From NCBI GenBank assembly GCA_003990765.1, contig RBNJ01000213.1, positions 1-36,554 of the forward strand: a DNA stretch of 36,554 bases, read 5' to 3'. Position 1 is the stretch's first letter; the number at the start of each line of letters is the position of its first letter. The translations under genes and the position numbers were made by a program. Below the pieces are notes generated by a model. It did not search any database. It worked only from the letters and a program-made list of their open reading frames with translations, and was not told the origin of the DNA. Source of the stretch: Jimgerdemannia flammicorona (Eukaryota). Of this stretch, positions 1,451 through 36,554 are shown one piece after another.

Positions 1451-1451
1451 C

Positions 1452-5572: not shown

Positions 5573-6164
5573 TAGTGCTCCTAACGAGTCAATTTAATCC
5601 GGATTGGATTCGGATTGATTCGGATTGAATCCCATCCAGATGGATTCGAATCAACCATTGTTTTGATTTCCAAATTAGATAATTAAATGTTTACATCAAT
5701 AACTCAATGAATAATCATCCAAATTTGATGATCTTGGTGTCATTTGAAAGCCCTTAATATGGCCTATCTAATGATACCATGAACATTGAAATCCGATCAT
5801 GCGTTGCTGAGTTATGAAGGAAACCGTCTGAATCGCCGATTTTGGAAATTCTTCGATTTGCCGATTTTGGAAATTTCGTCAAATAGAACCTTTTCCTTAA
5901 TATCTCGGCAACGCGTAATCCGATTTTAATGTTCTTGATATCATTAGAAAGGCCCTATTAAGGGCTTTCAAATGACACTAAGATCATCAAATTTGGATAA
6001 TTATTCATCGAGTTATTGATGTAAACATTCAATTGTCCAATTTGGAAATCAAAACAATGGTTGATTCGAATCCATCCGGATGGGATTCGAATCCAATCCG
6101 AGTTGATCCGGATGGGATTCAAATCCATCCGAATCCCATCCGGATTGACTCGTTTGGAGCACTA
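5573..6164. mobile_element. 592-bp fold-back MITE, hAT-type
   Basis: TIR TAGTGCTCC(T/A)AACGAGTCAAT; inverted arms of ~250 bp; perfect 8-bp TSD TTCCCAAG (5565-5572, 6165-6172); subterminal CGGAT/GGATT repeats. Confidence 0.95.
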
Positions 6165-10667: not shown

Positions 10668-10826
10668 GTTCCCTTCTTGGAAAATTGGATATCGGCATAG
10701 GTATCACCTTTTGAAGCAAGGAGTTATACTACACGGGCTTAGGTCGATGTCGTGGAGGAAGAGTATCGGTGCTTTGGACGAATGGGTTGGAATGTTATGG
10801 TATGTGAATCGGAGTACATGTTCTGC

Positions 10827-10835
10827 TTTTATATA
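10827..10835 (-). promoter_or_regulatory. Candidate TATA box of the Zn-cluster gene
   Basis: TATATAAAA on the minus strand ~160 bp upstream of ATG 10667. Confidence 0.4.
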
Positions 10836-12179
10836 ATTTAAGATGACCTGATTCCATTTTGTACTACGTAATTGTCTGTCCGGCTATTTTATATTGTTTA
10901 CGGTATGTTTAGAGGCGATCCGTGACGGAAAGTTTGACGATGTTATATAGAATTTGTGACCAAAAACAAATTCAAGGCGTTTCGCTGTAGAGGTTTGCTT
11001 CTAAAATATATGCAAACAGGGTGGTATGGTCATGGACGTGTTTATAACACGTCGGGACTGGTGTCCCTCTATTTAATTAGTACTGCGGTAAGTTATTTTG
11101 ACATGGCGATTGTAAGTACCCTCATCCCTCAAATCAAGGCTACAAAGATAATGCCAAATAAGGATTACTTACTTTAGGTATCTAACAGGATTCGCTATAG
11201 AAACATTCTCACGACAACTCGGTTACGATTGTTATCACCCAAATTCAATTTGGCGCCGCAGTGCTATATTAAAATTAGAATCATATGACAGATGTCTAAA
11301 CTTACCCAAAACCGGAATACAAGGTTCAAAACGACGCCGAAGCTAAATTATCGGCCGCATTTAATGTCGGTAATCTTTCTTAACAAATCAGTATCTCATG
11401 AACAAGTAAATAGCTCGCGTGGAATAAATCAAACGACGGTATTGCCGACGAAAGGATTGCCATCCATCACGGTTTTTGGTAAAATACATACAGTCTTACA
11501 ATATTTAGTAAAACTACAGGATACCATACAAATGATTGTGTTTAGAGATGGTAAAAGTCTTGTAATCTTAACATCTTCGATACCTAAATATTCATTAAAA
11601 CAATAAAAGCCTTGTAACCTTTGTGAAACCAAATATTTGCTTTCATTTTAAAGTTTTTCATGGGCCCATCCGGATAAATTTGTGGGTGGCGGGGCGGTGT
11701 GACAACGGATATTATTTCGGTCCATGTGACCTAATATCACTACACAAAGGGAAGTTCTCGATATTTGCATCGACCATTTCCGGTCTGTATATCATGCCTT
11801 GGGTTCTCATCGATCCTGCCACCCTTGGGTCATTTTCTGTATAACAATAGCAAATGAGAGAAATCTGTACAATTACTAAACGGATAATTGTGACGTGTTG
11901 ACGGGAACAGGGAATGATGGTACATGGAGTAAAAGCCTAGTAAGCATTATCCATATCGTTAACGTACTCGTGGTATACCAGAATTTTAAACGAAATACAA
12001 TCACAAAAGGTAAGGTAGTTAAACAACCCCCGGGCTAGAATTTGATCTGCTAACCCGGAATCATGCATAAATTAAATACTGCGCGAATCGTGGGAAAGCA
12101 GTCGATTCCGCGGATAGGCTGACAGGTAATATGTTTAAGGAACTTATAAATGCTTAAAAGAAAATAATGATATCCATTC

Positions 12180-15100
12180 TCACAGTAGTTGTAAATACCA
12201 TTAAATTTGGCTTGTTTTTAACCATATTTTTAATCTTGATAATCTTATTTACCACTGTACTCATATAAGATATAGGAGGCTTTTTTATTAATCTCTTTGA
12301 AACTATTTTCTTCATAGGTTTCTTTATTAAAAAGGCTTATAATGACATAGTTGTAGTCTATCAACTTACTGCATTCATACATATATTACCACTATTATTA
12401 TATTTATACTTTGAAAATATCTCAGGTAAGAGTCAACATAATGACCCTAGTTTCTTCAATATAAAGTAACTAATTCTGGATTATTCTGATGAGTTCAAGT
12501 AACTTATAGAGTTAATATAGATTTAAAAGTTTCTCAAAGAATTTCTCAGAGAAAATATTTTAAGCTTTATTTAAGAGAATAAAGAGAATATCTGTATAAA
12601 AATGAAAGAATAATCTGAAAGTATCTTAAATATTATAAGTAGACTCAGAGAGAGATCTTAGAAAAAAATAACAAAAGTAATTTTATAATATTTCAAAAGG
12701 ATTAATAACTAGCTGAGCTAAGAGAATTATACTAATAAAAGATAAAAAGATACTAGTGATATCTAAATATTAAGAGAAGATTTTTCAATATTTAAACCCT
12801 ACCAAAATATTATAAAATATTTTGAAAAGATAAGAAAACACTAAGTAAAAGATTTAAACTATTGTTTATCTCTCTTCTTAATTATTTATATATAATAGTT
12901 CTGGTTTCTTTAAGAGAAAACAACTAGATCTAGAAGGTTCTAGTGAGCCTAAAGTAGTTAAATATATACTAATAGATTTAAGTTATAATAAAACTATAAA
13001 CTAATAAAATTAATATTACAGATAATTAAAATAACTATCAGTCTCAAGTTCTGAATACATGTAAGAAAGCACTAAGTTCTATTATCTGTTGCAGCAGTAT
13101 AGTTCAAGTATTACTTTAAGGTTTTATTTTTTTTATTTTTTTTTTATAGTTATAAGGACTCCCTCTTTATTACCAAAACTATCTATTATATTCTAATATA
13201 TATAAACCCCTCACTCAATCTTACAGAGAGGCTCTTTCTCCTCCTCACTGTTTTTCCGAAATGCTGCCATCTCCTCTGTTATTCTAATTCTCCCCCCACT
13301 CTTCCTACAGATTGTCTCTACTAGTTGCCTCTGATATCTCTCACTAGCACCCTCTCCCCTCCACCATCCATTCAATATGTCCACCATCAGCCACTCTTAT
13401 CTAGCAACTCTCACCCCCAGCATCAGTCATTGACCTTCTTCAAAAACATATAACCAATGTCTGACAAGTCTGACTCAAATAGTTAGCACTCATTTCAATA
13501 TCAGCCATTCATCTTACAACTTCTCTACCAGCCTTCTCTAGAGGTTACTGCATCTCTCTCCCACCCCCAGCTCTGGAGGGTATACTCTCAGCTATATCTC
13601 AATTACTCTCCAAAAGTCACCCATCACCTTATACTCCCCTAGCCAATGTTCAGGTATTTGTACTACTTCCCCCTTCTGTCTAATGTTCAGACACTCCTCA
13701 TACTCCTAGGTATCTCCTTCTACCAAGTGACCTAACCAGTAGTTCAATATTATATTATACTATAGAAGTTTTCACCATATCACCAGAACTTAGAGAGAAC
13801 CCATCTTGTCATCTGCTTGCCCTATAACCAAATACTATTTCAATTTCACTCTTCTTCAATTCCTACCCTCTGTCATACCTTAGGCCACAGATCTCTCCCA
13901 TGCTCCCAAAGATACTCTATATCATCTGTCAAGCAGAAGTCATCCACTGGTGCTTCACCCAAAAGAGGCAGTCCCACCTCTATATCTGGGATCCCCAATT
14001 CTCCTCTCCCTCATCACCCCACCATCAGAGACCAATATGGTGAGCCCCATCTATCACTTCCTACCAGAATCTCCTAAAGTATATCCTCTGACTCTCCTCT
14101 AAAGCTATTAGAGATAGTAGGTCCCCAGTTATACCATGGGGGGAGAACTGGGCCTCCCACCCTCTCTGCATAAGGGGTACCCACTCTCTGCCCCTCAACT
14201 CACTAGCTCACTTCAGCCACCATATCTGTAAGTAATGAAAGTACTTGTAAAAATCCACCAGATCCAGGCCTCTCTGGTCTACTGATAAAGTAAACATCTC
14301 TCAGCCAATCTGACTCTGGTGTCCTGCCCATATCCAGGTCTTAGCCAACTTCAATAATCTCTTGACCACCCATGTCAGAAAGTCCAAGTGGTACCCTAGG
14401 TACCATAGCTTAGGCAACCAGTATATATTCAATACTGTTACTCTCTCAGCCAGAGATATATAGTGGCCACCCCACCCCAAGAGAGTACTCTTTAACTCAA
14501 CCAACCTCTGTTCTCACTATCCACAAGATAATAAGTAGCTATCAACAGAAAAGTAGATCTCCAGATATCAAACAGCCTCTTCTACAGAGATAATTGTTCC
14601 AATCACATCCTCTCCCACATTCCTCCTTTCAATACCAGAGTCTCACACTTATGCCAGTTGAGCTTAGCATCAGAGTACCCCTTATACTACTTCACTGCAC
14701 CTTTCAGTACTACTATATTCTCTGCTAACTTCAGCACAATCACTATATTATCAGTAAAGGCCCCCACCTTCCAATTAATTTCCAGAATGTCCAAATTCTC
14801 AACCTTTCTCTAAATTCTATTCAAAAGAGGCTCTAGAGCCAATATATACAGAATTAGTAACAGTGGATCCCATTGCAGCACTTTCCTGTCTAGAGGGAAT
14901 AAAACCTCCCTGTGTCCATTTACTATAATTGCAGTCTGACTCCCTCCAAGCAGACCAACCAAGACCTGCCAGACTCCAGAGAGGACTCCAATATGCTTTA
15001 GCACCCCTCCAACCACACTCACCAGACTTTGTCATAGGCCTTCTTCTGGTCTAAAAAGACCAGCTATCTACTGAGCAGCTGTACCTATAAAATAGGTGGT

Positions 15101-16968: not shown

Positions 16969-18330
16969 TATCTCTCTCCTTAAGAATCAATATTCTTAAT
17001 GAGTTTTTAAGATTATATAAGAATAGTTATACTTAACAAAATATTCTCAAACTTGTATAGATACTATTACAGAGAGTTGGCCAACTTTATATAAGATAAA
17101 ACTTAAGACTTAGTAGTTGGAGATTTAAACTACTTAGATAAAAACTTTTATCATTTTGAGTAAGCTTACTATTGGTAACTACATCTATATATAAAAGTAT
17201 ATAAAGCTAGTAATTAGAGATAGAGATATATATTTTATCTCAAAGTCTTAAATAAGATCTTATATATTCTAAAAATTGATTAGTATTTTTTAGATAGTAT
17301 CATATTTAGAATAATCTATATATTTGACCAGATATTCTAGTTAGCAGTAGTAGATTCTTTTATCTAAGATTTTTTTAACCTTATACTCAATATGGCCTTC
17401 AATAATTATAGGGACAGATGGCTTGAAAATTTGCCCAGAGTAGAGTAGTGACTAGTTTCAAACCTTGAGGTAAGATATATAAAAGACTGGGTATATTTAT
17501 ATAGTTTCAAGTAACTTGAGATTATAGGATAATATAGAAACTTGCTCAATAATCTAAAAGGATTTAATATACTTAAATTGAAACTTATTTGATAGATAGT
17601 TGACTTAAGATTAAATCTTGAGATTCTTAATAATTAATAAAACTTAATCACTAATAGTATAAGTGATATTACAGTATTTCTTATCAGCATACTTTGCTTG
17701 ATACTATTGGGCCTTCTGAAGGTTTGTATTAGCAATCTTCAGTAGTTTGTCTATCTTGTCTATAAGGTTCTTAGAAGCAGATACTTATGTTTGACTACTT
17801 TTCTGAAAGAGAACTAAACTTGCAGAGGTCTCAGAATCTTGACTATAAAGTAGCTGGAAAAGGAAAAGACCAGTATATGATTAGACTATATTGTTATATA
17901 TAAATTCTATATAGGTCAGATAATAGTCTAAATTATCTTGCTTATAAGAAACATAGTTTCTGAGCATCTGTTCAAGAGTTCTATTTACACACTTAGTTTG
18001 TCAATCAGTTTGAGAGTGAAAGGTGGTAGATATGGCAATTTGAGCTCCCAGGGTCTGGAAGAGGGCTTGTCAAAAGTGATGCTAAACTAGGGGTCTGGAT
18101 CACTAACTATTGACTCATAGTAGACCATAATGTCAGAAGATTGACCTTGCAATCTCAGGGGCCATAGCATTGGTTGTAGTAGGTTTGGCAACCATGGTCT
18201 TGGTCAGGTAGTCAATGAATACAACTATGGCATCAGCACTAGACTTAGTTCAAGGAAGTTGTGTCACAAAATCCATTGTGACTTGCTCAAACTTCTTGAC
18301 AGGAATTGGCATAGCATAGAACCCATGGGA
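16969..18330 (-). mobile_element. Chromovirus (Ty3/Gypsy) fragment: integrase core, chromodomain and PPT
   Basis: FEQVTMDFVTQLP, IVVFIDYLTK, FHSQTD*QTKCVNRTLEQMLR; chromodomain EYKVKKILDKR...LEYLVKY (~17240-17395); PPT AAGGAGAGAGATA then TG at 16968. Confidence 0.9.
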
Positions 18331-19132
18331 TATGGTAATAGTCCAAAATACGTGCCAACGACGACAATACTTGACATCACAGAAGTGTAACCTGTAGTGC
18401 TTAACAGCAATCCAGCAGCCGCAAATGCTTCAGCACGGATTCTTCTCCCTGTAATCCGCAACATTGGCATTCCCGACTCCCGTTTTAGTTCTCGACGACG
18501 TCCTAAGCGTTTCAAAGGTTGTGAAAGTTACAATGTCAATGACTATGACTCAGACAAAGAGAACTGCCGAAGTATTAACTGTTCCCCGCCCGGCACACAC
18601 TAACCCAAGCGTCGGCGAACCATTCACTCGTACACGACGTCCGCCTTGTCGCCCTCGATTTCCACTAATCACAGAAGCACCATATACAACCCTGCCCCTC
18701 GGGTCACAACCAAACTTCATTATTTTGAAATGTCTTCCAATCTGACCAACATTACGTAGCTCGGCGGTACCCCCTGTTCTCTGGCATGTCACTGATACTC
18801 CCGCGGTCTCATGATTGCAACGCCGCCCATGCACTCGACGACAACGCAACGCAAAATTCCGTCACGGCATGTGGTGGCGAAATACGTGGTGCGCAAGCAG
18901 AGATTGATAAAGAATCATAAAGCAAGACACCTTAACCTTAAATAATTCCTCCGTCAACTAATTTGGGCTTGACCGTATTGGAAACAGCGGGACAAGTGGG
19001 CACGACAGTGATGGAAGTGGACATATCGTTGAAGGAGCTCGAGGTGCCGGGATATTTGCCGACTCCTGCGGCCGAGTAAGATTCAGATGAGAACGAACAC
19101 GACCAAGGACGATGATTCCTGCGACACAGGTT

Positions 19133-19563
19133 TCAAGTTAATTCCAATATTGAGGCCGACGCCGAAAACTCCTCAGGCCATTTCATTATCACTTTGGCCG
19201 CAAAGTACCTGACGTCGCGGGCTAGCTGTCCAAATTGCTTACTAACACGGCAAGCCGATGGGATCAAAGTTTTGCCCGTTCGTGTTGACCCAGCCAAATA
19301 CTTGTAGATTTTTATACTGCATTTTGACCGCAACAAATACATGTTTATGGTGATGTCGTTTGCCTCGGTTGTTGACGCAGATTTGAGAGCGCGCTGTGAC
19401 TTGGGGAACGACGTTTGGGCGTTTAACTTTGAGGAATATATATTGAAGGGATCTACGCCTACTTTGAGTTCTAATGTTCCCATTGAAATGATGAAAATAG
19501 GGTTGTGGTTTTTGATGTCAGGAAATTGTCAGCAATGACGGCATGGTGTGGACAGAAATACAT
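19133..19563 (-). pseudogene. Degenerate gene of unknown function, paralogous to 27200-27426
   Basis: GVDPFNIYSSKLNAQT..SQRAL..TIN versus GVDSSVIYCSKSDIQTPQSAL..TIN; the upstream DNA is also shared. Confidence 0.45.
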
Positions 19564-19859
19564 AGGAGGAAGAGAAGGAGGACGTGTGATGTGGAGAGCA
19601 AAAAAAATAAAAAGGCCCCAATTACAAAGCCCGGTTTGAAGCAATTGCTAATCTCTCATTTAACCCATTGTTACATAGTAGTTGGCCACAAGAATTTAAA
19701 CCTCCAAAAGAATGGTAACATACAACGCAAAGAAAGTAAATAAATGCGACATATTTATTATAACGCCCAGCAATTATTATAACACGGTGATCGGTAACCC
19801 TTACGATTGATGACGTGAAAGCCTGGTTGTGCTGGGGTTATGTGACATTGCCGAGGCGA

Positions 19860-20339
19860 AATTTTGTCCCCAGACCATTGGTAAAACAACTTCCCAGCGT
19901 GTCTGCTTGCGCGCAAAGCGATGCACGGATACTTGTACTGCTGCTGCGCGAATTTAATCGAATTATTAGGGTTTCGCCATTTTGCTGAATGCGCATTTTT
20001 CTCGTCGCATAGAAAATTGACTTTGACAAAACGGCACCATAAAAATATTAGTCCTGTTTATTGATGGAGCTAATGGAAGCGTCGGGTTTATTACGTCTGT
20101 GGGAGATGGGATTCCGACGTCCGAACCAGCAAACGCTAATACAATTGTGGAAGCCAATTTCTAAACACTCAATGTTGACAAAAAGGCGATGTCGAGCTCA
20201 CGCTACCGGCAGGAAAACAAACCGGAATTCTCCGCGAAAGGTGTGCGTTAAATGCAAATTGGATAAGATAGGATATCGAGGAAAGCACTGCACATGTTGT
20301 AAACCCTTGTGTATGATTTCCCGTGTAGACGCCAAGTAG
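19860..20339 (+). pseudogene. Degenerate paralogue of the Zn-cluster gene
   Basis: KRRCRAHATGRKTNRNSPRKVCVKCKLDKIGYRGKHCTCCKPLCMIS aligns with KRRCRIHATERTTKRNPPGNRCFECIKDKKGCRGIPCARCKHFGKFC. Cys3 and Cys6 are lost; stops and frameshifts upstream. Confidence 0.7.
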
Positions 20340-21764
20340 GGCAGTCTTAGATCTCAAACTTAGGTATTATCTCACAAACCTTTCACTAATCCGCTTTGTA
20401 GAAAATAATAATTACTTACTTGCATGTATTTATTTTTTTGATACAATAGTATGACATGTACCGATTATTAGGTGAAGTTCTTCAACTTAACATATGTAAG
20501 TCAAATCCATAGTGTTTGTATACCATTAGATTTAAATTGTTCATGGAAAATTTATGTATATCCTTCTTTAACTGAGCTAAGTGAATTCCGAATGACATAA
20601 AGGAATCTTATTTGATACGACGCAATCCAATTCCACCCGTAAGTAGCACTGATTGTACGCCAGGGTCTCACGGTTCCTCGCCCTGCTCCAAATCACACGA
20701 CGGACTTCGGGATGAATTGTGAGTGACTGCAGTGACTTACCTTGGGGGTAACCTCGTCCCTGACGTGTATCTCCCGTCCCTCTAACGCCTTACGTGCTTG
20801 ACCCACTCCGCCCACTCATACGGGTAATGATAGGAGGCTCGTGCGTCGGCCGAGCAAAGTATATTGAAGCGAGAAAGTGAATTTAGAGTAAAGTAAGAGA
20901 GCGGAGAAAAGATATAGAGCGGGAAGTGACGAGGAGACTGTCTCACAGAGCGAGAATCGTAATTTCTGTAGGGCAGAACGATAAGCGTAGATCGAATTGA
21001 GCGTATAGCCAAGTGCGCGTGGAGCGAAGAGCCGGACATGCATACATAAAGAAACAGCGCCAGTTTTGGGGGTAGGAAACTGTCGTAAAAATATTCGAAT
21101 AGTTAGAATCCTTATGCCTTTATTGAGCGTTGACACCTGATCTCGCGCGCGAGATCTCCCTAGAAATTTTTTGCTAATGCCTGTAGGCTGGAAAAGTGGG
21201 ATATATCCCATGCAAATTCGTTAAATGAATCTTTGAAACGAAACCTATCAAGCCTGAAAAATGATCCATTATTCACAGATTTTTCAGCTAGAGCTTTCTT
21301 GCCCGCATGCCCGGGTATTCTAGTTGTTCAAATCTGGCCTTTATTAATCTCGCCAACCATCCCTTATTTATTTTATTCATTTTTTTACTTATTTTGTTTT
21401 GTTTTTTGGCAGCCTTATATGACTAATACTATAAACCACCTAAAGGTTGACGCGTAAGCCTATGGAGGTTTTGAGGATATGCATAGAACCGTTCGGCTTG
21501 CATAGTACGATTTATAAGGACCTGAGGGATCCTGATAGGGATAGCGCTTTAGACACGTCGTCACTCGATTAGGCAATCATATTTTAATTAGCATACGTGC
21601 AATCCTTTACATTCACACCATTAAACACATTGTCTGCTCAAACTCCATTCCGCTGGTGTAGTCACAAATCACCAGCTCTGATTGGCGAACAGAAATTGAT
21701 AACGTGCACGTGAGACGGATTACGGAAGCGACTTTGGCTCTCCGCCACTGAACAAGCCTCAATG

Positions 21765-22140
21765 GAAATTTTGTCATCTCACCCAACGTCTCCCATTTTC
21801 GAGCGTTCGCAAAGCAATTTTATGTGCGATCAACATGTCTGCACGTAAATTTAGTAGCGCTGCTGCGGGAATTAAATCGGATTATTACGGAAGGGACGAC
21901 AATTTTAGTATTTTCTTCGTTGCATATCCATTGATATTAAAAAATAATTGAGATTGAACAAAACATGGGCATCGCAAAAACCTTCGCCCCGTTCCTTGAT
22001 GAATTCGATTTGTCCTAACGGAATCGTCGGATTTATTTCGGATGAGCAAGATGGAATTCCGATCTTTGAACCAATAAATAATAATAAACGGTGGGCGTCA
22101 ATTTCAAAATACCAAACAAACAGGTGCGGGAGCATTTGAC
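21765..22140 (+). pseudogene. Diverged duplicate of 19860-20170
   Basis: GCTGCTGCGGGAATTAAATCGGATTATTA versus GCTGCTGCGCGAATTTAATCGAATTATTA; NGIVGFISDEQDGIPIFEP..WASISK versus NGSVGFITSVGDGIPTSEP..WKPISK. Confidence 0.6.
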
Positions 22141-23129
22141 ACCGGTCGGCGCGTAGCACCGTATCCGGCAGACTGAAACGGTCTGCTGCGGCCATCGGGA
22201 TACGTCAATCGGCACGTCATGTCATGATGACAACTGTCATATCATGAGTCATTCCGTTACTTGACGACATCTTTCGGTTCAAGAAGTGCGAGCTGAAACG
22301 GGGACTTCTTGAAACAATCGCGACGACATAGCGGGTCCGAATAGCAAAGAATATGCGATCGCACAATGTGACGTGTGAGTCAGGGGTGAGGGCATTCTGC
22401 GAGAAACCAACGTGCATTGTTATTGCGTAATGATGTTCTCCATTAGAATTTGCTAGTACCGTTAGTGGTGCTCTAGATGTACTGCGGATTTTATCTCAAG
22501 AAATTTGTGTTATCCAATGATGGACTATTTTTTTTTTTTTTTTTTTTTTTTTGAGGCTATGTCAGGCACGAGTTCAACGAGCCTCATTTCATCAGCTGGT
22601 TCTATGAAACAATCTTTTTAAATTTAGAACGCACAAAAGATCTAGAAGGAAACTAAGTCGCTTCCGCAGATAAGCTGACACGTAAGCAAAGGCATATAGA
22701 AGGTAATTAGGGAGCCGAAATGGGAAAGTGCAGGTAAAGAAACCAGCCACGATGTCAACTATCTATGATGTGGCCGAAATTTACAGTATAGATTTAGGAT
22801 TACGTATAAAGCATAAAAAAATCCGAATGTGGCGAACCCTCACCATCACGTTGGTTCGTGACGTTATCTCTCTCACCCGGGTGTTCGGAATTTTCTCTGA
22901 CAGTTCTGTAGTACAATTGCATTAGAGCTTGAATGTCATCGCTCTTTCTCCCAATCATTCCCATGTGCAGAACAAGTTAGAGTGATAGTACAGGCTTGCC
23001 TCATTTTAGGTCTTACAAAATCTGTAATGGATTCAGACTCAGGATTTTAGAAGCTCGTTTCGTGTGTGATAGGGCCGTTGGATTCATTCTGGGCGTCCTC
23101 TTGACGTATTAGTTTGTTAAGAAAAATAG

Positions 23130-23982
23130 TGCGATGAGTGAACACTATAGCATAGCCAGATGAAATATAAAAGAATACTTAGCATAATTATCCCACATAG
23201 TTACCCATATGTGCCAAAATTTGTATAAATAACCAGATATACCAAATTGGGACAAACTATCCCCTAAGAGAACACTTGTTCCCTGAGGAACACTTGTCTC
23301 CTGAGAGAACACTCATCCCCTGAGAGAACACCTGTCCTCCAAGAGAACAAGTGAGCACACTATCTCTAAGTTAGCCTTACTGTACATTCTATAATTATCT
23401 GAATAGTAATCAGATAGCAACCAAACTTGTATAAAATACCCCAGAGATTTAAGTGAAAAAACCTCAGTCTAAAAAGTTAATGAAAAGCAAAAGCCAATTA
23501 TCTGATATATGTACTAAGAAAACAGATCTGCCAAAAGCCACTTGAACTAGAAAGAATTACAATACTTAGGAGATATGCCTGTTAATAGTCCCTGCTAAGA
23601 AGTTGTGAGCTTTATTTCTTTTCTACTCCAGTCTACTTCCCAATATAAAGAAGCCCACCAATTTGGGTCTGCTTATCAGATTAAGCTCAAAGAGAAGTCT
23701 GTTATATTTTAGTCTACTTACTAGATAAAGTCTGAGATTTACTACTAAGTTCAAGTAAAAAGCTTTATTACTATTTTAAGAAATTCACCAAATTTGTCAT
23801 ATTATATAGGATTTGTACTAATTAGGAAATCACTAAAATTATTTGTATTATATATCAATAAGAGAACTTCTACTTTTAGAAACTATATATTTGTTACTTT
23901 TCAATAAAGTAACTAGGGGCTCAAGTAAACTTATATAGCTATTCTATCTTATAATTTATCTCTATTGAGTCAGCACATTATA
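23130..23982 (+). repeat. 5' LTR (853 bp) with ~20-bp tandem repeats
   Basis: TG...TTATA (eroded TTACA); CCTGAGAGAACACTTGTC-type repeats at 23260-23350; TGTATAAAA at ~23428. Confidence 0.88.
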
Positions 23983-25734
23983 TTTGAGAACTTAACTCAA
24001 AATCTATATAACTTTTTAGATAACAGAACTCAATAGATAAACTGGATATATTTAATATAGTACTAATCTCTATCACTATAGAAGAATAAATTATCAGTAG
24101 TATTAGATAGGAAGAGAAGTAATTACCTTGAGATTAGACAACCATCAACTATTAGAAGAATTCTAAGAAAAAGCCAGTATTGTACAGAATCCTTTACTAT
24201 TAGTTCAATCACTAAGTTATAGCTCTTAAATATATCAGAAGCAGCAGCAGACCTATTACTATGAGATCTGACCTGATCAGACCAACTGAATAACATTGAC
24301 TACTTTACTCAGAATTTTGATAAACTTAGATTCAATTTCTCTTAAAATTATATCTATCTTACATATTTCCATCTAAACTAGCAAACTCTCTAAGCTTTAT
24401 ACTCTCAATAATATCAAGAATTGCACCAGTATTCCAAAGAGTAGTACCAATCTTTCAACTCTCAGTATCTTAACTGAGTTTAGTATAGATATAGAAACAG
24501 ACTCAGAAAATAAAAATGAATCAGAAACAGCAATAATAAAATAATAGCACTATTACTTACATTTACAGAATATCTAGAAGAAGATCTAAGAGAATTTCTA
24601 GATACTATTAAAGGAATTATAGCTCTGAAAGATCTTCACTCAGAAGACAAATTAGTATCTTTAAAGTATAGCTAAGAGAGCCAACTAAAGAAATCTTTAT
24701 CAGAATATCAAATTATCTAAACTCTGATCTAATATAAGTTTTAGTTATTGTAAATTACTATGCAGACCAATACAAATCCATTTTTTATCAGTTAATTAAG
24801 AAGTATACAGTAATAGAAAAGAAACTATTATAAAAATAAAGATAAATTCTAGAGAATCCCTATGAGTATTCTTTATAAGAATCTAGAAGAGAATGTATAT
24901 AGCTAGATTCAGTACTTCTAACTAAGATATCATCAGTCTAATAATCTTTATAAATAGATTCCTATCAACATTACTTAATATATCTATACTTCTAATATAA
25001 ACCTAATGAATGAGTAGATACTACTTAAGAATTCTTTGATGTAAACTAAGAAATCATCTAAAATGACAACAATAAGAAAGAAGACAAGGAGGACCTCTTG
25101 ATTGAGACTCTCTAAAGAATTCTTTAAAAAAATCTCAGGGAAAAAAAACCCACAAAAGAATAGAAAAAGGATAGTAGTAAAATCTCAGATTAGCTTAAAA
25201 CTAAACCAATTAGTTAGATAAATAGAAAGACTAGATATTCACTTTTGTAAAAATAGAAGTTACCTATCTTGGGATAAAACTCAAGTTCAATGCTATAACT
25301 GCAGATAGCTGGAACACTATATCACAGAATATAACAATAGAAAAACTGATCAATGGGACTTTAAACTTCAAAATCAGAAGAATATAATTCAATATAAGAA
25401 GACTGAAGCTCATTTTATCAAATATTGCATAATTAGTGATAATGAAGACTATAGTGATCTAGATTGATATTCTGCTAAGATTAATTCTAGAAAAACAATC
25501 TACTCTATAGAGAAAAGAGAGACAAATGAAGATAGATAAGTCAGAAGGTTCAAAAGAAGAATTGTTCAAAAAGAAGAGACTGAAGATCAGATTGATACAC
25601 TCTCTCATTCCCCTTCACTCTTTATTTCTAAAACTGATAAACTATTATCTAAATCCAAAAATAAAGAAATAGAATTAGAAGAACAGGAGTCAGTAATTCT
25701 GAAATTTAAAATGAAGTATATTTTAAAGAATATA

Positions 25735-26066
25735 GTCTGCAGATTTACTAACTATTGACTTATTATATTATTGGTAAACAACTACCTGCAGACAGAATCT
25801 ACACAATCTATAACAGAATGTCATAGCACTACTGTAGACCTAGTTCTCCTTAAACAATATATAAAGAATGAACCTAGTTATTTATCAAAGTATCATCAGT
25901 CATATTAAAGTCCTATTTTTAGAGAAAGAACTAAAACCATTAGAATTGAGTGATCCAGATATAGAGAAAGATAATAGCACAGGAGCAGATACTGAAGATA
26001 CTGCCTGTTAAAAAAAAAAAAAAAAAAGATACTGAAGCTACCTAGAGATATTAGAATAATGACTAA
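25735..26066 (+). pseudogene. 3' remnant of accessory ORF3
   Basis: TTPADRIYTIY...FSLNNI*RMNLVIYQSIISHIKVLFL..DNSTGADTE matches TTAADRLYTIY...FSLNDLQRMTLPTYLSIIHQVEILFL..DDGTGIDAE. Confidence 0.8.
25987..26037 (+). mobile_element. Minimal poly(A) retroposition scar
   Basis: AGATACTGAAG + ATACTGCCTGTT + poly(A) + AGATACTGAAG (11-bp TSD); absent from the homologous ORF3 copy. Confidence 0.8.
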
Positions 26067-26105: not shown

Positions 26106-26938
26106 TGTAAAAAGTGAATACTATTTTATTGCTAGATAATATACAAAAGAATACATAATGTAGTTACTCTATATAGTTACTTATATATTATAATTTGTAT
26201 AAATAACTAGATATAGCAAATTAGAACAAACTGTCGACTGAGAGAATACTTATCTCTTGAGAGAATACTTATCTTCTGAGAAAATACTTACATATCTCCT
26301 AAGGGAACACCTGTCCTCCAAGACTTTAAGTAATTATACCATTTCTAAATTAGTCTTACTATATATTGTATAATTATCCAGATAGCAACCAGATAGCAAC
26401 CACATTTATATAAAATACTCCAGAGATTTAAGTGTATAAACCTCAGTCAGAAAAGTCAAAGAAAAGTAAAAGTCAATTGTCTGTTATACTTAGGAGAAAG
26501 GTCTGTCAAAAGCCACTTGATTTAGAAAGGATTACAATACTTCAGAGATATATATACCAATGACCCACTACTAAGAAGTTGAGAGCTTTATTTCTTTTCC
26601 ACTCTAGTCTACTTTTCAATATAGAAGTTAGCTGATTTTGGTCTACTTATCATATTAAGCCTAAAGAGAAGTCTGCTACATTTTGGTCTACTTGCCAGAT
26701 GAGGCCTGAAGATTCACTGCCAAGTTTAGGTGAAGAACTTAGTTGCTATTTTGAGAAATTCACTGTTATACAGAATCTGCACTAATTAGGAAATCACCAA
26801 AATTATCTACATTATGTGTTCAAGATAACTCACACTTTTGGAAACTGAACATTTGTCACTTTTTGACAAAGTAACTGGGGGCTAAAGCCAACTCACATAG
26901 CTGCCCACTTTGTAATTTTATTAAGCCAGCACATTACA
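26106..26938 (+). repeat. 3' LTR (833 bp)
   Basis: TGTAA...TTACA after the PPT-like TTTAGTGAGAACTGA; collinear with the 5' LTR. Confidence 0.88.
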
Positions 26939-28769: not shown

Positions 28770-31700
28770 AACTTAGTGGATATCCACCTCTCTAACATAT
28801 ATACTACACTATATAAAGAAGATGTCAAACCTACCAGATATGTCAAACATGAGCCTGCCAAGTAGTACAAGTGGAACAGAACCCAGAATGAGTACCAGCA
28901 GTGTAAGCACACCTATTATAACAGTCACAACTACAACCAATTATGTAGTAGTACCAATAATAATAAAGAGGATGATTTCTGTCTTTGATAGTAAGGATTA
29001 TACTATACAGGAATACTATATGAAGAATCTCTTAGAAGAATGTGGTCTGGAGGACTACTGTAAGCCACAGAAACAAATAACAGGATATTATACTATAAAG
29101 GATTGAAGAGTGCTAAGGAAGATTACATTCATTCTTTCAAATATACAAAATAAAGTCATAATTAATACTATAATAGCAAATGAAGTCTGGGAGATCTTAT
29201 ACAATCACCACCAATAGGCATCTATGTCCAACAGATTTCACCTGAAAGTGCAACTGTTCAATCTCCAAATGAAGTCCAAGAAGAGTATCTGGGACTTCAC
29301 TAATCATATTAATAATCTGGTGAATCAAGTAAATTTATACTAGCAGATACTATCAAAGATGAAGACAAGGTCCTGGTCCTTATATATAGTTTTCCCAAGG
29401 TGTACAACATGGTTGTTGCCACTATAAGGAAATCCAGCAAACTATCAGACTATAAGTATGTTATTATAAGTCTTTTAAATGAGAAATTAAGACTGAGTAG
29501 CAATGATAATAAAGAAGAGGAGAAAGAATTTTATGGAGTATGTAGACAAGACAAAGGTAAGCTGAAAAAATGACAAAGCCAGCAGTACAATAGTCAGTAC
29601 AATAGTTAGTATATTACTCAACAAGCTAAATTTGATGATAAATGCTTTTACTGTAATAAGTATAGATACTATAAGCAGAAATATAACTATAAACAAAAGA
29701 AAAAAGATGAGCAATGTGAGCAGGTAAATGTTATAGATACTAACAATAATGGTAGTAGAGATCTATTCTTTACAGAGAGAGATATAGGAGGGAATTTAGA
29801 AAACATTTTTATACTGACAAAAAATGGTCCAACTCCTAGTTTCACTAGTTTTAGCACTAGCACCAATGTAAGCTATATGTCTAGCAGTACTAATATATAT
29901 AGTGAAGAGATCTGGCTTATAAATTCTAGTATAATACAATATATAATAGTATACTGTGAGTAGTTCTCTATATATGAGAAGTTTGAGTACCCTGTACCTA
30001 TCAAATTAGGCAATAATAATATCATCTATATATAATTTCAGTATATACCTATATGGGAATATTGATGAACCTTTAGGCATCTTTGTGGACATACTATATA
30101 TACTAGATATAAGTAAGAATCTCTTGATAGGCCAGATAATGGCTTGAGGAGATAAAGGAGTAAATATATATCTATATAAATGGTATAATAGTAATCTATC
30201 TAAAGAATAATAAAAAGTTAATATATATATCAAAAAGAGAAACCTATATGTAATTAATAGTATATACATAAAGTGATATAATATCTTTATATTCTGTAAC
30301 TATAAAGAGAGAATCTCTAGTGTATATAGTATAAATTCGTAGGACATATTGGTAAGATAAGCCTAGAATAGGTGATAAAGAGTAAATCTATATACAGATT
30401 ACTGAACTATATACTACTAGATTTTAGCTTTTGTAATAGATATTTTGCAAATAAGGCTTTCAAGTAACTTTTTCGGAAATAGATAAAGTAAGTAGCCAGT
30501 ATTCTTAATCTGATATATATGAATATCTGTAGTATGAGAACTTTAATATATTCTTGAAAGAGATACTATATTATCTTCATTGATGATTATACTTACATAG
30601 CCTATATATACTTCCTTATAGTAAAGAATGAGATATTTGAAAAATTCTAAAAATTCATGATAATTATAGAGAATGAAACAGGATATAAGATACAGACCCT
30701 ACACTTAGATAATAGTAAGAAATATATCAATAAAGCCTTCAGAGACTTTTTGAAGAAGTATGGTATCTAATATTTTATAATAGCTCTCTATATACCTGAA
30801 TAGAACAATGTGGCAGAATACTTTAATTAAACAATAGTAGAGATGGCTCAAATAATGATGAATATGGCCAGCTTACTATACTCCTTTTAGGTCAAAGTAG
30901 TGAATACAGCAGTATATATCCAAAATTATTGTATTTTTCAAGCTCTAAGTAAGGATTCTAGTAGATCTAGCAAATAATTAATAATTCAGAAATGATACTT
31001 ATCTCATCTCTGAAGAATTGTGGAGTGGATCCAAGCTTGACATTTTGCCCCTATTAATATTTGAAAGTAAGGCTTATATCTTGGATAAGGGTAGTAATAG
31101 AGGCAAATTTAAGCCTAAAATAAATAAGTATATATTTCTTAAATATAATAGAGCAGTATATAGATTACGAAATCTACAGAAATATTATATCATCATCTCT
31201 CATAATATTCAATTTAAGAAAAAGACCAAAGAGCAGGAAATTTACATAGAAATTCCTATCTCTATCAACTTGATGATATAGCCTAAGATATTCTGTTCAA
31301 ACAAAATTATATAAACTATACTGATATATACTTATGAATATGTCTATATAGCAATAACTGGTGAACCAGCAAACTATGATGAAGCCATATACTCAGATGA
31401 TAAAAAGGAGTGAAAAAAGACTATAGATGAGGAGTATAGTTCACTTAGCAAGAATGATACCTGAGATTTGATCTCTCTTCTGGCAGATAAGTAAGCTATA
31501 GGATCTCACTTAGTATATAAAATCAAACATAATAACCTTAGTGATATAGAGCAGTATAAGGTCTGATTTGTGGCAAAGGGGTATTTATAAAGATATGATA
31601 TAGACTATAATGAGACCTTCTTCCTGGTATTCAAGTTTATTTCACTTAGAATACTTCTTATAATCAGAGCCAAATATAACTATAAAATATATCAAATGGA

Positions 31701-31950
31701 TATTAAAACAGCCTTCTTGAACAGTAATATAGATATGGAGCTATATGTTCATCAATTATAAGAATATGAACTATATAATGATGAGCAAAAGGAGCTTATA
31801 TATAAGTGATATAAAGGTCTCTATAGCATCAAATAAGCAGTAAGACTGTGGAACCAAAAAATCAATAAATATCTCTTAGATAACAGATTTAAATATTGTA
31901 AGACTGACCTACATATATATATCTAGCATACATTTTCATAAATAATATAT

Positions 31951-33371
31951 TGTAATGTGCGTGGCTCAATAGAGGCAAATTACAAGGTTGGGGGTTGATG
32001 TAGTTTGGCTTGAGCCCCCAGTTACTTTGTCAAAAAGCAACAAAATGTTCTAAGATTCCTGAGGTCCTTGGTATTTAGTGGTATAATAGTCAAGCTGGAT
32101 ATCTGTGAGCGATTTGTATGTCGATTTCCTAATTGGGATGGTTCTCTGGGTGTAGCAGCGATTCGGGTGTATGTGTGTGTGTGAACAGGTTTCCTTCTTG
32201 GGTCAACTGGGAATGGTAGAATTTCGTGTGTAGCATGACGATCTCTGTATGTAACAGTCTAGCAATTTAGCGGTTCTCCTTCTTGGGTGGCAGGCAATTT
32301 CTGTGTAGCACGACGATCTTGTGTGGCAATTTAGCAGTTCTCCTTCTTGGGTGGTGGGCGATTTCTGTATAGCATGATGGGTTCCTTATGTGGGATGTTC
32401 TGATAATTTGGTGGATAACTCGATTTGGCTCACAGGGAATTGTACTGGCGGCGGATATCTTAATTACTCAGGCTCACTGGGAACAATGGATAACTTCGGA
32501 TAGTATGGATAATTCAGACAACTGGGAATACTACTTGAATGGTGTGAGTTCTTCCGAATCGGGTTCTTCTGGGAATACAATGGCGTGGATTCTTCCTGAA
32601 TCAGCAGCTTCAACTGGGAATATGGCAGTTAACTTGGAAATGGTAGATGATACAGATTCTCCTAAATCGGCAGCTTCAACTGGGAATTAACTAGGATTCT
32701 TGGCAAGTTATGTCAAAGACTGGCTTCATTTGTGCAAACAGGTCACTGCAAAGTTGTATCAGGAACTGGCTTGTGGCAAGAAAGGCGGGCTCTCTGGGAA
32801 TGCAGTGAAGTTCTTTCTTGAACTTGGCAGAAAACTGGGATTCTTCAGGCTTATCTGGCAAGCATACCAAAAATGATCTCATTCTTTATATTGGAAAGTG
32901 GACCGGAGTAGGGGAAATAAGCTCACAATCTCCTAACAGTAGCTGTAGAGTTCCTCTTGAAGTGTGTTAGGCAGACTTATCTTTTGCTTCAATTTCGGAC
33001 TGAGGTTTATTCACTCTTATCTCTGAGGTAATTTATACAAGTTGGTTACTATCTGGTTGCTATGTGGCTAACTATAGATTTACTACTTCTGGTAATGCTT
33101 GGGTGTGTCCTCTGGGTACAGGTGTGTCCACAGGACATCAGTGTGTCCACAGGACATAAGTGTGTCCGCAGGACATAAGTGTGTCTGCAGGACATGAGTG
33201 TGTCCTCAGGATACAGGTAAGCAATCCTGATCTGGTGTCTGGGCTAATTATAAGTGTGGTGGGCATGGGTAACTATGATACACTGGAAGTCACATCATGC
33301 TGAGTAAGTATGCTAATTGTTCACATCATCTGGCTAAGTTATAATTCAGGTAGCACGTTTGGTCTGTTACA
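31951..33371 (-). repeat. 3' LTR, 1421 bp, with several internal tandem repeats
   Basis: TGTAA/TTACA termini; PPT CAGTGGGGGCTGA at 33372-33384; ~19-bp repeats (GTGTGTCCACAGGACAT) at 33102-33217; ~60-bp repeats at 32190-32380. Homologous to the LTRs at 23130 and 26106. Confidence 0.93.
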
Positions 33372-33410
33372 TCAGCCCCCACTGAAGGGTAGTCTGTCCC
33401 AGACTATTCT

Positions 33411-33923
33411 TCAGTCATCATCCCAATAGGCATAAGCAGCTTCTGCATCTATACCTGTTCCATCATCATCATCTGAGCTACAGTCACTCCATTCTGGGGG
33501 TTCCTCTTCTTTCTTGAGAAATAGGATTTCAACTTGGTGAATGATACTGAGGTAGGTAGGCAGTGTCATCCTCTGGAGGTCATTCAGGGAGAACTGGGCC
33601 TGGATTAAGGCAGAGGGGTTTCATTTGTAGATTGTGTATAGTCTGTCTGCAGCAGTAGTATTCCTTCTGTTCAGGCCAGTAGTGTTACGGACATAGGCTA
33701 GGTCTGGGAGGGGAAGATTCTGCAGTTGTTCTCAAATTGCATAGTATGCCTGCAGCTGGTGGACCTAGAGTAGCCTCTCAGCCAAAGTGAGGTTCTCTTG
33801 ATGAACTCGGATTTTCTGAAGATATGTTCCATTGGATTCCCGGAACTGAGGCAGGGGAACTGGTAGGGCTTGGAGGGAACTGAGGTCAAGAGTTTGGAGG
33901 CAGTTGTCAATTCTCTGGTTCAT
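33411..33923 (-). pseudogene. 170-codon accessory ORF3 between integrase and PPT
   Basis: ATG 33923 overlaps the pol end by 17 nt. One frame MNQRIDNCLQ...EEEPPEWSDCSSDDDDGTGIDAEAAYAYWDDD* with three stops (TAG, TGA, TGA), each one C>T from CAG/CGA. Confidence 0.85.
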
Positions 33924-36326
33924 GGTGTGAGATGAGATATATCTTGAGGTGATTGATGTGTACTGGTGTTCTCAGAGCTCGTCCATCCATGCTTCTTAAA
34001 TAGATGCTGGTTCCTCTGATATTGTGTACAAGATAAGGTCCTTCCCATTTGGGCTCCAATTTGGTGGCAAAGTTTGTTTCAATCATGCTTCTCCAAACTA
34101 GTACTTGATCTCCAATCTTGATCTCCTGATCCTTCTGTCTTTGGTCATAGTACTTCTTTTGTCTTTCTTGGGCTTTGATAATCTGACCTTGGGCCTGATT
34201 ACATAAGTGTTCTGCCTTCTTGAGAAGATTCCCAAGGTTCTCATGGTCAGCAGTTCTTGTTTTCTTGGCAAACATCATTTCAAATGGCTTTTGTTTGGTT
34301 GAGGTAGCAGGGGTGTTCTGAATTTCCCATAGGATCTCAGGTAAGCAGAGGTCCCAATTGGTAGAATCGACTCAGACAAGTCCTTTCTTGATGGTCTGGT
34401 TCATCCTTTCTGTCATGCCATTGGTATGAGGATGGTATGATGTAGTCCGTTTGAGATATATCTTGTGAATTCGAGCATAACTTGTGATTATGTTGTTGAT
34501 GAATTCTGTGCCCCAGCCAGAGATGAGTTCTTCTGGGGGTCTATATCTGAGTGTGAGTCCATGGAGAAGGCCTACAATGGTTAGGGCATCTGTGATTTCC
34601 ATTGGGAAAGCCTCAGGCCACTTGGTCAGATGTTCTACAAATATAAGGACATTTTGTTTCTTCTTGGTGTAACTGGTAGAGGTCCAATTACATCTATTCC
34701 CCATCTTTGAAAGATGTGAGTGGGTGGGGGAATCAGTTGCAGAGGGGCTTGATAGTTCTTCTTTCCTTGGTACTTCTGGCAGGTGTCACATTTCTGAATG
34801 ATGTCTCGGACTTGTATTCTGAGGTGGGGCCAATGTTGATATTGTTTCCGAATCTTGTCTTCTATACTTGTCTGTCCTTGGTGGGCTTTCTGACATTCTT
34901 TTCGGATGAGATCTTCTTGTGCCTTGATAGTCTGAGGAGCTTCCTTTAGGGTATAGTTCCTTGGGACACCCTTCTTCTGATTTATTGGTGTTGGCAGGAA
35001 AGTATATCAACATTGTTGTGGGCTTTCCCTACTTTGTGGATGATGGTGATTTTGTAATCCTGAAGAATAAGGAACCAGCAGGCAAGGATTCCAGTGGGTT
35101 TCTTGTGGTTGAATAACCATTTGAGGGCTGCATGGTCTGTGATCAGGGTGAACCTTTTTCCAAAGAGATAATGCTTGAACAGGGTGACTGCCCATATGAC
35201 TGCAAGGCATTCCAGTTTGGTACTACCATAGTTCATCTGCTGTTGATTGGTAGCTCTGCTTGCATAAGCTATCACATGGTACTGTTGATTGGATCCTTCT
35301 TGGGCTAAAACTGCTCCGAGGCCATCTTTGGAGGTATCTGTATACAAGATGAATGGCTTCTGTAGATTGGGGTGTACAAGGATTGGTACTGTAGTCATGC
35401 AGTTTTTGAGTTCTTTGAAGGCTTCTCTTTGTGATTCTGTCCGTTTGAATGGCACTCCTTTCTTGAGAAGGATCCAGATAGGGGCAGCGATTTGAGCAAA
35501 GTTCTTGATAAACCTTCTGTAGTAGGATACTAGCATCAGAAATGATAGTGTCTCCTTCGGGGTTTTGGGTACTGGCCAATTGTTGATCTTCTCAGTTTTC
35601 TTTAGGTCTGCATGGGTTTCTTCTTTCAAGACTATGAATCCAAGGAATTCAAGTTTCTGTTTCCCAAAGTAGCATTTCTTTGCATTCAGTCTCAAGTGGT
35701 TTTTGCGGGTGAGCTTGAAGAATTCCTCCAGGTGGTGCAGGTATTCTTCGAAATTTACTAAATAGATGTTGGAATCATCCATGTATACAATCAGACAGTG
35801 GTGGATTAAGGGAGCATAGACTGAATTAATCATCCTCTGAAAAGTGGGGGGTGCATTGCAAAGTCCAAAGGGCATTCAGAGGTATTCAAACAATTTTCCT
35901 AGAGCAAGGAAGGCTGTCTTTTGAATGTCTTTGGGGTCCATGGGAATCTCATGGAATCCTGTGAAGAGGTCCATACTGCTGAAGTATCTGGCATCTTGTA
36001 ACTGGTCCAAAAGGACATTGATTCTGGGCAAAGGATAGGCATTCTTTTTGGTAACTGAATTGAGTTTCCTGTAATCCACACAGAGCCTCCATCCTCCTTT
36101 CTTTGGTACAATAAGTATAGGGCTAGCCCAGGGGCTAGTGGAGGGTCGGATGACTCCATTGTCTAAGAGTTCTTGAATGTGCTCCTTTTTGAATGTTTTC
36201 AAGTGATGGGGTATTCTATAGGGTTTCTGCCAGATGGGTGTTGCATTTCCTGTATTTATGCTGTGGTGGTATGATGGATTATATGGCAGGTTGCCATAAT
36301 CAGTGGTGAAGATATCTTGATATTTG
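33907..36326 (-). pseudogene. pol: Gypsy pol (RT, RNase H, integrase), disrupted
   Basis: ORF pieces 35876-36326, 34982-35875, 34372-34704, 33907-34278; in-frame TGA at 35876-35878. Confidence 0.95.
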
Positions 36327-36554
36327 TTTTTTTTTTTTTTTTTTTTTTTGTTGTATAGTCTCTTGGACTGCCCTTTATTAATGAAGTCTATAATGTAAAC
36401 AATACAATGTCCCCCTACCCTCAACCAATGCCCCGGGGGCCCAAACCCCCCCTCTCAACCTCCCTCTGCCTGAGCACCACCCCATTACCCACTACCCAAA
36501 CCCTCCCACCACTCTTCCGGGTGATACGCTGCACCAAACCCCTGTGGTACCCCC
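36327..36554 (-). mobile_element. 3' end of a LINE (poly(A) tail plus 3' UTR) inserted in Gypsy pol
   Basis: T23 tract, then ATAGT..GGACT.CCC.TTTATTA, as at the 3' end of the LINE at ~13146; C-rich plus strand like the other LINEs. Confidence 0.8.

Follow-up and report, generated by a model that had tools for sequence, protein, structure and literature searches.

Foamy virus Tas and HTLV Tax are small regulatory proteins encoded 3′ of pol. Third open reading frames (ORFs) after pol are also known in Gypsy elements, a class among long terminal repeat (LTR) retrotransposons, where the env gene of errantiviruses and the ORF3s of the bdelloid elements Juno, Vesta and TelKA lie between integrase and the 3′ LTR. 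PMC5408684 describes the bdelloid ORF3s as proteins that are env-like or span the membrane, as GDSL esterases or as DEDDy exonucleases. It is rare for an LTR retrotransposon to carry an extra gene, and most such genes are unexplained. Here we analyzed a 36,554-nt stretch of DNA (contig RBNJ01000213.1, positions 1-36554; hereafter the window) in which a Ty3/Gypsy element on the minus strand carries a frame of this kind, here called ORF3, between its integrase and its 3′ LTR. We conclude, with a probability of roughly 0.75, that 33923-33411 on the minus strand is a copy, now decayed, of a genuine third gene of a Ty3/Gypsy clade, the product of which would be a non-enzymatic nuclear adaptor. What is new is the accessory-gene family; the element class and the existence of third ORFs after pol in Gypsy elements were already known.

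The clade to which this element belongs is laid out as LTR, gag (CCHC), protease, dUTPase, reverse transcriptase (RT), RNase H, integrase, ORF3, LTR. It shares with the bdelloid lineages (PMC5408684) a dUTPase between protease and RT, a GPY/F integrase and the lack of a chromodomain; a dUTPase in this position is also reported for basidiomycete elements (PMC2864245), and planarian elements are reported to have one too. Like errantivirus env and the bdelloid ORF3s, the frame studied here is a third frame between integrase and the 3′ LTR. Unlike the bdelloid ORF3s, it has no transmembrane segment and no Pfam match and is far smaller than env; none of the 16 ORF3s scanned reached any Pfam cut-off, GDSL esterases and DEDDy exonucleases included.

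Two further published cases come close to this locus. Novikova et al. 2010 (PMC2864245) include, in their drawings of some full-length elements from fungi, an additional ORF with no known function; the text gives no sequence or description of it. No description of an ORF3 protein was found in the literature, as far as these partly available sources go, and the additional ORF of PMC2864245 could be a member of the family. CERV, encoded by the Cer1 element of C. elegans, is likewise a non-env Gypsy accessory protein, which PMC10309623 describes as nuclear and without homologues outside its host group. It is a 517-amino-acid (aa) protein that has H, M and G domains; its spliced mRNA consists of 5 exons and has exons in common with gag (PMC10309623). 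ORF3, in contrast, measures 115-250 aa across the clade and lies wholly after the integrase, and CERV, compared by description only, may be a functional analogue at most.

33411..33923, minus strand: ORF3 pseudogene, 170 codons plus a TGA stop, with three in-frame stops and homologues of 170-172 aa

The coding frame runs from an ATG at 33923 to 33414 on the minus strand, without a frameshift, and is followed by a terminal TGA at 33413-33411; the plus strand across the same interval contains many stops. The original prediction, made from the letters of the window, had described a frameshift-free 170-codon frame that overlaps the pol stop and ends about 40 nt before the LTR. This description was accurate: the ORF3 ATG precedes the integrase-frame stop (33909-33907) by 17 nt, and the LTR begins 39 nt beyond the ORF3 stop. 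The three stops that interrupt the frame are TAG at codon 53 (33767-33765), TGA at codon 64 (33734-33732) and TGA at codon 101 (33623-33621), and the claim that all three are of the C>T type held only in part. Codon 53 reads CAG in two related DNA copies and is a C>T change as predicted, codon 64 reads GGA in both and is instead a G>T change, and the change at codon 101 is ambiguous, with CAG in one related locus (L002) and TGA in another (L003). This last codon encodes Arg, Trp or Gln in intact proteins, and the TGA common to the window and L003 may be a recurrent change at a mutable site in independent dead copies.

Intact homologues of the window ORF3 exist in public protein collections. 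Four of these (P0002, P0007, P0003 and P0009) are 170-172 aa long, about 70% identical to the window ORF3, and share its start (M[TN]QRID...) and its end (...W[DN]DD). All four have sense residues at the three positions where the window has stops, and the expectation that the stops would revert in relatives was borne out, with the TGA of L003 at codon 101 as noted. Since ORF callers list open frames only, the DNA of relatives was examined as well. A metagenome scan with P0015, the closest intact integrase (84% identity to that of the window), returned 80 loci, and 33 loci having DNA 3′ of the integrase were examined. A similar scan with ORF3 motifs gave 228 pattern matches, none of which was confirmed. 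Loci L001-L003 belong to the window's own subfamily and have ORF3 directly after the integrase.

In 27 of the 33 loci, a non-pol frame of 80-246 aa begins at an ATG no more than a few codons from the integrase ...K.Y motif and extends across the pol stop; L003 and L004 also carry the ATG, and their frames are broken soon after it, in L003 after 38 codons. An ORF3-family match was found in 26 of the 29 loci with an integrase at least 36% identical to P0015, the exceptions being the broken L003, which scores 0.0019, and L012 and L036, which gave no match. None of 15 loci with a more distant integrase had such a match. ORF3 is thus present throughout one clade of Gypsy elements and absent outside it among the loci examined. 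Related sequences occur only in metagenome-derived records, both in protein collections and in metagenome loci. Four sequencing runs contained 422, 45, 17 and 11 short related contigs of 80-100% likeness, which come from soil-metagenome runs of several studies and from runs of a coded "organism A". In the contig rows displayed, 8 of 13 ORF3 differences fell at third codon positions; these rows are a selection and were given no weight.

Profile comparisons connect the ORF3s across subfamilies. The window's subfamily matched subfamily b by hhalign at E 6.5e-6, and subfamily b matched subfamily c at E 0.028 in the same register. An iterative profile search, scored as against 1e6 sequences, united 27 of 30 ORF3s from either end and left L009 (a partial copy), L031 and L036 unlinked. 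Among 504 unrelated or reversed decoys from the same loci, the best reached only E 19; two far stronger "decoy" rows, from L001 and L007, were pieces of ORF3 that had been omitted from the query set. A MAFFT alignment of all ORF3s displayed the common motifs ...YY.IG..., ...A.R.Y.LF... and ...AI..L.gV....L.... L012 has no overlapping ORF3; about 125 nt beyond its pol stop lies instead a distinct acidic frame of 158 aa (2095-2568). In several profile-search rounds this frame scored best or second best among the unrelated sequences, at non-significant E values of 46-100, and it could be an ORF3 that has diverged very far or been replaced.

The pattern of substitution identifies ORF3 as a coding sequence. 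DNA differences within ORF3 were concentrated at third codon positions, and the ratio of non-synonymous to synonymous substitution (dN/dS) by NG86 was 0.09-0.41 in all 18 pairs with computable dS, out of 31 pairs tried, with 0.20 for L002 versus L003. The original prediction had allowed that a dN/dS near 1 would speak against a gene, and the values lay far below 1. For the window ORF3 against L002 or L003, the proportion of non-synonymous differences (pN) was 0.23-0.26 and that of synonymous differences (pS) was 0.76. Across 15 of 15 pairs from four subfamilies, pN/pS was 0.16-0.46 in the ORF3 frame versus 0.78-2.16 in the two shifted frames, and Fisher tests gave p values of 8e-10 to 4e-25 in the 7 pairs tested. 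The overlapping pol frame carries a matching signal. In subfamily d, the synonymous difference rate of pol was 0.25-0.45 along the integrase and fell to 0.21, 0.13 and 0.05 in the ORF3 overlap, the pattern expected of a doubly coding segment. Given this frame-specific selection and the reduced synonymous change in pol, ORF3 is a genuine protein-coding gene under purifying selection.

That the frame is merely open by chance and has no function deserves next to no credence. The window copy does have stops and the pol around it is broken, but a chance frame is at odds with the excess of synonymous differences, relative to non-synonymous ones, that is specific to this frame and already contradicts it, with the intact homologues and their distribution in the clade, with the confidently predicted fold described below, and with the drop in pol synonymous change within the overlap. 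The claim that ORF3 is a functional third gene is therefore upheld at the level of the family, by its homologues, selection, clade distribution and fold, with the window copy itself a pseudogene. A related observation concerns the other frame of the overlap. Five loci of subfamily d (L016, L018, L020, L021 and L025) have a pol tail of about 20 residues after ...K.YH (...PVVQVP..R.DDV). Its conservation equals that of the ORF3 N-terminus encoded in the other frame, and synonymous change nearly vanishes (0.05); the pol-tail/ORF3 overlap of this subfamily is truly doubly coding.

The minus-strand element that carries ORF3 in the window consists of the following features, read from its cut 5′ end to its 3′ LTR:

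34982..36454, minus strand: RT and RNase H in two frames (Pfam RT_RNaseH 8.8e-37; RVT_1 1.4e-15 and 1.7e-09)
34372..35006, minus strand: integrase H2C2 and catalytic core in two frames (Integrase_H2C2 1.7e-07; rve and rve_3 below their cut-offs)
33907..34371, minus strand: C-terminal part of integrase with the ...KLEPKWEGPY... module (weak MLVIN_C Pfam match; 84% identity to P0015)
33920..33923, minus strand: ATGA at the ORF3 start, its TGA being the pol stop in L002 and L003 when the junctions are compared side by side
33372..33410, minus strand: spacer of 39 nt between the ORF3 stop and the LTR, with a G-rich purine run at the LTR edge
31945..33371, minus strand: 3′ LTR, left limit approximate, from LTR-to-LTR mapping and a contig break

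The order RT, RNase H, integrase from 36454 to 33907, as read by Pfam, is that of Ty3/Gypsy (Metaviridae) elements, and tblastn with the gag-pol of relatives matches the window at 36322-34997. The element is truncated by the window end inside RT, and its 5′ LTR falls beyond the window. The LTR edge is set at 33371, the point where a metagenome contig match breaks (one contig, with a weak joint, side 24), the LTR mapping agrees, and from this edge follows the 39-nt gap between ORF3 stop and LTR. The G-rich purine run beside it is likely a polypurine tract, judging by its letters and place. The 3′ LTR holds a tandem repeat of 19 nt in 4.7 copies at 33122-33211.

Relatives supply the parts of the element that the window lacks. 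The zf-CCHC, protease and dUTPase are present in L017, L019, L021, L022 and L028, L001 has the dUTPase, and L019 has both LTRs. Every relative with enough upstream DNA has the dUTPase domain in this place, after protease and before RT, with Pfam E values of 1e-15 to 1e-33, in these regions:

L001, 3-1379
L017, 1105-4932
L019, 1183-6135
L021, 2508-7949
L022, 774-4616
L028, 1486-5964

L021 (1-8256) is of a particular form: its first 481 nt recur at the contig end at 93% identity, and about 500 nt separate its ORF3 stop from the start of its 1814-aa gag-pol frame. The contig is a circularly permuted unit of about 7775 nt, the form that collapsed LTRs, or tandem or circular copies, would be expected to take in assembly.

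ORF3 forms a cistron separate from pol, and the ATG that opens it is its own and lies where integrase ends. Pol ends 4-12 residues after ...KIY, and ORF3 overlaps its non-conserved tail by 4 to about 400 nt, with the ATG placed where the conserved integrase ends. Within the one family, natural junctions are of two kinds, a 4-nt ATGA overlap and a long +1 overlap. ORF3 lies in the +1 frame in most loci; in L002, L003, L008, L010 and L031 it lies in the -1 frame with the ATGA overlap, and in the 22 other loci with an ORF3 of at least 80 aa the ATG lies 17-407 nt 5′ of the pol stop. At the junction of L002 and L003, pol ends ...CCA TGA and ORF3 begins ATG ACT; the window retains the letters ATGA, and L001 has ATAA. 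In the window, a 2-nt length difference from L002 and L003 just 5′ of the ATGA puts pol in another frame, and pol therefore extends to 33907, its last integrase piece terminating ...HINHLKIY plus ten further residues and a stop. The ORF3 ATG derives from differing pol codons by subfamily: it is read from TAT-G, from CAT-G, or from a pol codon's final letter plus the TGA stop. Because the ATG is built from different pol codons across subfamilies, the start codon itself appears to be selected.

These junctions bear on the possibility that ORF3 is a C-terminal extension of integrase, joined to it by programmed frameshifting or split from it by mutation in decayed copies. In its favour, some copies have no stop in the ORF3 frame over 17 to more than 40 codons 5′ of the ATG, and an indel marks the junction in the window copy. 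We nevertheless consider it very unlikely, because the frame offset varies (+1 in most subfamilies and -1 in others), both the ATG site, made from different pol codons, and the pol stop, present in all, are kept, and no fused protein was found: five representative matches were all 65-157 aa and none occurred among longer proteins, which is weak evidence by itself. Nor does ORF3 match any known integrase domain by Pfam, the other ground on which the original prediction might have fallen.

The two kinds of junction are natural examples of two ways to encode a downstream cistron. An ATGA overlap is the classic layout for termination-reinitiation, and stop-restart translation at AUGA or UAAUG is used by the victorivirus CP/RdRp pair, by influenza B M1/BM2 and by the non-LTR element SART1. 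The same stop/start overlap is present in the five -1-frame loci listed above, and its letters survive in the window, but the subfamilies with ORF3 in the +1 frame do not share the layout, and an ATG 17-407 nt before the pol stop does not fit a simple restart. By analogy with retroviral env or the cerv gene of Cer1, a spliced subgenomic RNA would be the better explanation for the longer +1 overlaps. ORF3 would be expressed either from a spliced subgenomic RNA, as retroviral env is, or by termination-reinitiation at the ATGA overlaps.

The structure of the protein was modeled with AlphaFold from the natural protein P0007 and a 29-row family alignment. The model was all-helical, with a mean predicted local distance difference test score (pLDDT) of 89.0 and a predicted template modeling (pTM) score of 0.74; a shallow 14-row alignment gave a pLDDT of 43.7 and was unusable. 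Helices were placed at residues 2-18, 34-69, 72-82, 86-99, 103-108, 113-117 and 121-134, and the tail at 135-171 was less ordered (pLDDT 64-70). The window's ORF3 family is thus predicted with high confidence to form a helical domain of about 135 residues, in line with the helical-looking core noted by the original prediction. Foldseek of this model against the PDB gave a best E of 0.48 (TRPV1, taken as noise), VIA-align against 48161 chains a best Z of 3.7 with none at or above 5, which is below the usual noise level of the tool for helical models, and a BFVD fold search a best E of 0.36. In BFVD, phage DUF3102 proteins appeared at probability 0.6-0.8 with TM scores of 0.32-0.39, which is a lead only. 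A PDB sequence search with the read-through ORF3 returned nothing, and the best E of a PDB profile search was 1.8. ESM Atlas returned only unrelated hypothetical clusters at 0.93 with P0007, and generic eukaryote clusters with the RT-RNase H. The predicted fold therefore matches no known structure in PDB, BFVD and Pfam searches; the proposal to combine AlphaFold with Foldseek had thus led to a confident helical fold with no known relative.

The C-terminal tail and the hydropathy of the protein also agreed with what had been claimed for the window copy, namely a strongly acidic tail with Trp and Tyr and no signal peptide or transmembrane segment. The last 30 residues of the window ORF3 contain 12 D/E, no K/R and 4 W/F/Y. 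Among 28 complete members, 14 have a net charge of -5 or lower and 2-5 aromatics in the last 30 residues, including all four of the window's subfamily, and subfamilies c and d have basic K/R clusters resembling a nuclear localization signal. The usual hydropathy threshold for a transmembrane segment is about 1.6. No hydrophobic segment was found: the highest 19-residue Kyte-Doolittle mean was 0.97 in the window and at most 1.46 in intact members, with one higher mean of 1.54 in L011, whose C-terminal part departs from its subfamily. With neither a signal peptide nor a transmembrane anchor, and with no match to an env Pfam family, ORF3 is not env-like. It is also not a chromodomain, as claimed; Pfam found none on the integrase tail or in ORF3, and the related elements carry none.

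The ORF3 product is probably a nuclear adaptor or transactivator. Such a protein would be non-enzymatic and would act in the nucleus as an adaptor, its helical core binding the element's own LTR or chromatin and its acidic, aromatic tail recruiting the host transcription machinery. An LTR transactivator that works in this way, in the manner of Tas or Tax, is our tentative first choice among possible roles because of the activation-type tail, the tandem repeats of the LTR and the basic clusters in two subfamilies. ORF3 is like Tas and Tax in its place 3′ of pol and in its acidic, hydrophobic C-terminal tail, and the LTR of its element has short tandem repeats, but no similarity of sequence or fold to them was found by PDB profile search, Foldseek, VIA-align or BFVD. 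A doubtful alternative is that ORF3 is an integration-site tether or integrase cofactor, its helical core binding integrase and its tail binding chromatin or another host factor. A separate protein would then do the job of the chromovirus chromodomain, which likewise follows directly on the GPY/F module of integrase but is fused in frame and has a different fold. ORF3 starts exactly where the conserved integrase stops, its tail composition would suit the role, and the clade has no chromodomain, while distant relatives with a chromodomain or a long pol extension (L024, L005 and P0025) have no ORF3. This correlation, however, is based on very few chromodomain-bearing loci, and the site after pol also houses env and regulatory genes.

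We regard as unlikely a role in RNA handling, be it export of unspliced RNA (as by Rev or CERV), packaging, or promotion of reinitiation (as by caulimovirus TAV). CERV sets a precedent as a non-env Gypsy accessory protein with an export role (PMC10309623), an element that made ORF3 from a spliced RNA would have to export its unspliced RNA, and the leucine- and aromatic-rich acidic tails could conceivably serve as export signals; yet no arginine-rich or other known RNA-binding motif was found by Pfam, and CERV differs in its 517 aa, its exons in common with gag and its other domains. Less can be said for an anti-silencing factor that shields its own family, analogous to VANC of the plant VANDAL transposons, which the original prediction had named along with LTR transactivation and integration targeting and which appears quite improbable. 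Counter-defence proteins often evolve fast, as ORF3 does between subfamilies, and the host evidently mutates or methylates repeats, leaving CpG depletion and C>T-hypermutated AT-rich copies, but Pfam shows no likeness of ORF3 to an anti-silencing protein, and the window's own copies have been silenced and mutated regardless.

Several points weigh against the nuclear adaptor and, in part, against the gene itself. The biochemical role is argued from composition and position only; no DNA-binding or other known domain was found in ORF3 by Pfam, PDB or fold searches, no more than half of the complete members have the acidic tail, and subfamily d has a mixed basic and acidic tail instead. The window copy is a dead pseudogene within a frameshifted pol, and the ORF3s of L001-L003 are decayed too. 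The public protein homologues are the output of ORF callers and by construction are open frames. The DNA selection tests are free of that bias but drew on few loci per subfamily, several of them with stops themselves, and dN/dS was computed with CpG and CpA sites included. Finally, when the window's subfamily was compared directly by hhalign with c and with d, neither match was significant, and the link between them is transitive, obtained with iterative searches that can drift.

ORF3 remains a cleanly definable example of an extra retrotransposon gene and adds a protein family for annotation, in which such frames are now called "hypothetical protein" or missed. It also offers a testable handle on self-regulation or targeting by a retrotransposon without a chromodomain. 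A wider proposal, which we put forward as speculative and hold to be rather doubtful, is that this new regulatory gene of helical fold encodes a transactivator or tether and is translated in some lineages by an AUGA stop-restart after a gag-pol of about 1800 codons. If true, regulation in the style of complex retroviruses and coupled translation in the style of victoriviruses would be features of LTR retrotransposons of soil eukaryotes.

The window holds a second copy of the family on the plus strand:

23137..23980, plus strand: 5′ LTR of the second copy, aligned over 851 nt with 26113-26936 at 75.6% identity
25737..26066, plus strand: ORF3 remnant of the second copy (tblastn E 3e-11, 47% identity over 60 residues)
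26113..26936, plus strand: 3′ LTR of the second copy, starting about 47 nt 3′ of the ORF3 remnant

A diverged ORF3 at 25735-26066 had been predicted to keep the peptide with many conservative changes. It is recognizable as ORF3, but the changes are not conservative: the remnant is spread over two frames, residues 102-161 alone contain 3 stops, and about 25 residues are missing. Against the first copy, 119 of 280 differences are C>T or G>A. The interval 25737-26066 is a hypermutated ORF3 remnant in an internally shortened copy of the family, the internal part of which is only about 2.1 kb.

Base composition varies strongly along the window. In 2-kb bins, CpG observed/expected was 0.00-0.28 in most transposon stretches but rose to about 0.9-1.2 in 10001-12000 and in 18001-24000. 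The window switches between AT-rich blocks of 24-28% GC and others of 42-46% GC, and in the older AT-rich copies the C>T and G>A changes favour CpA. This pattern suggests CpG methylation and deamination together with a broader C>T hypermutation of old copies. The CpG depletion and C>T changes fit a methylating or hypermutating host such as a fungus and are no proof of one. Classical repeat-induced point mutation was rejected as the sole cause of decay; the AT-rich blocks fit it modestly (TA/AT 1.1-1.2), and the better-preserved copies instead show CpG loss with an excess of TpG and CpA. The A-rich run at 36321-36364 in the RT region, which reads as a lysine string in the pol frame and resembles other A-runs of the window, is probably a slippage expansion in a decayed copy.

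Nine further long frames of the window were scanned and had no Pfam match. The stretches at 1-3000 and 13000-15000 are C-rich (GC skew -0.36 to -0.59) and share direct repeats about 11.8 kb apart (families D2 and D4, 71-74% identity); their ORFs have no Pfam match, and the two stretches probably belong to another element, as a pair of copies or as its LTRs. Several inverted matches of 72-75% between 3229-5365 and 29916-31901 represent two copies of another AT-rich repeat family, which flank the window centre in opposite orientation. At 5617-5823 and 5892-6098, an inverted repeat of 207 nt, 89% complementary and with arms 68 nt apart, forms a long hairpin-forming structure.

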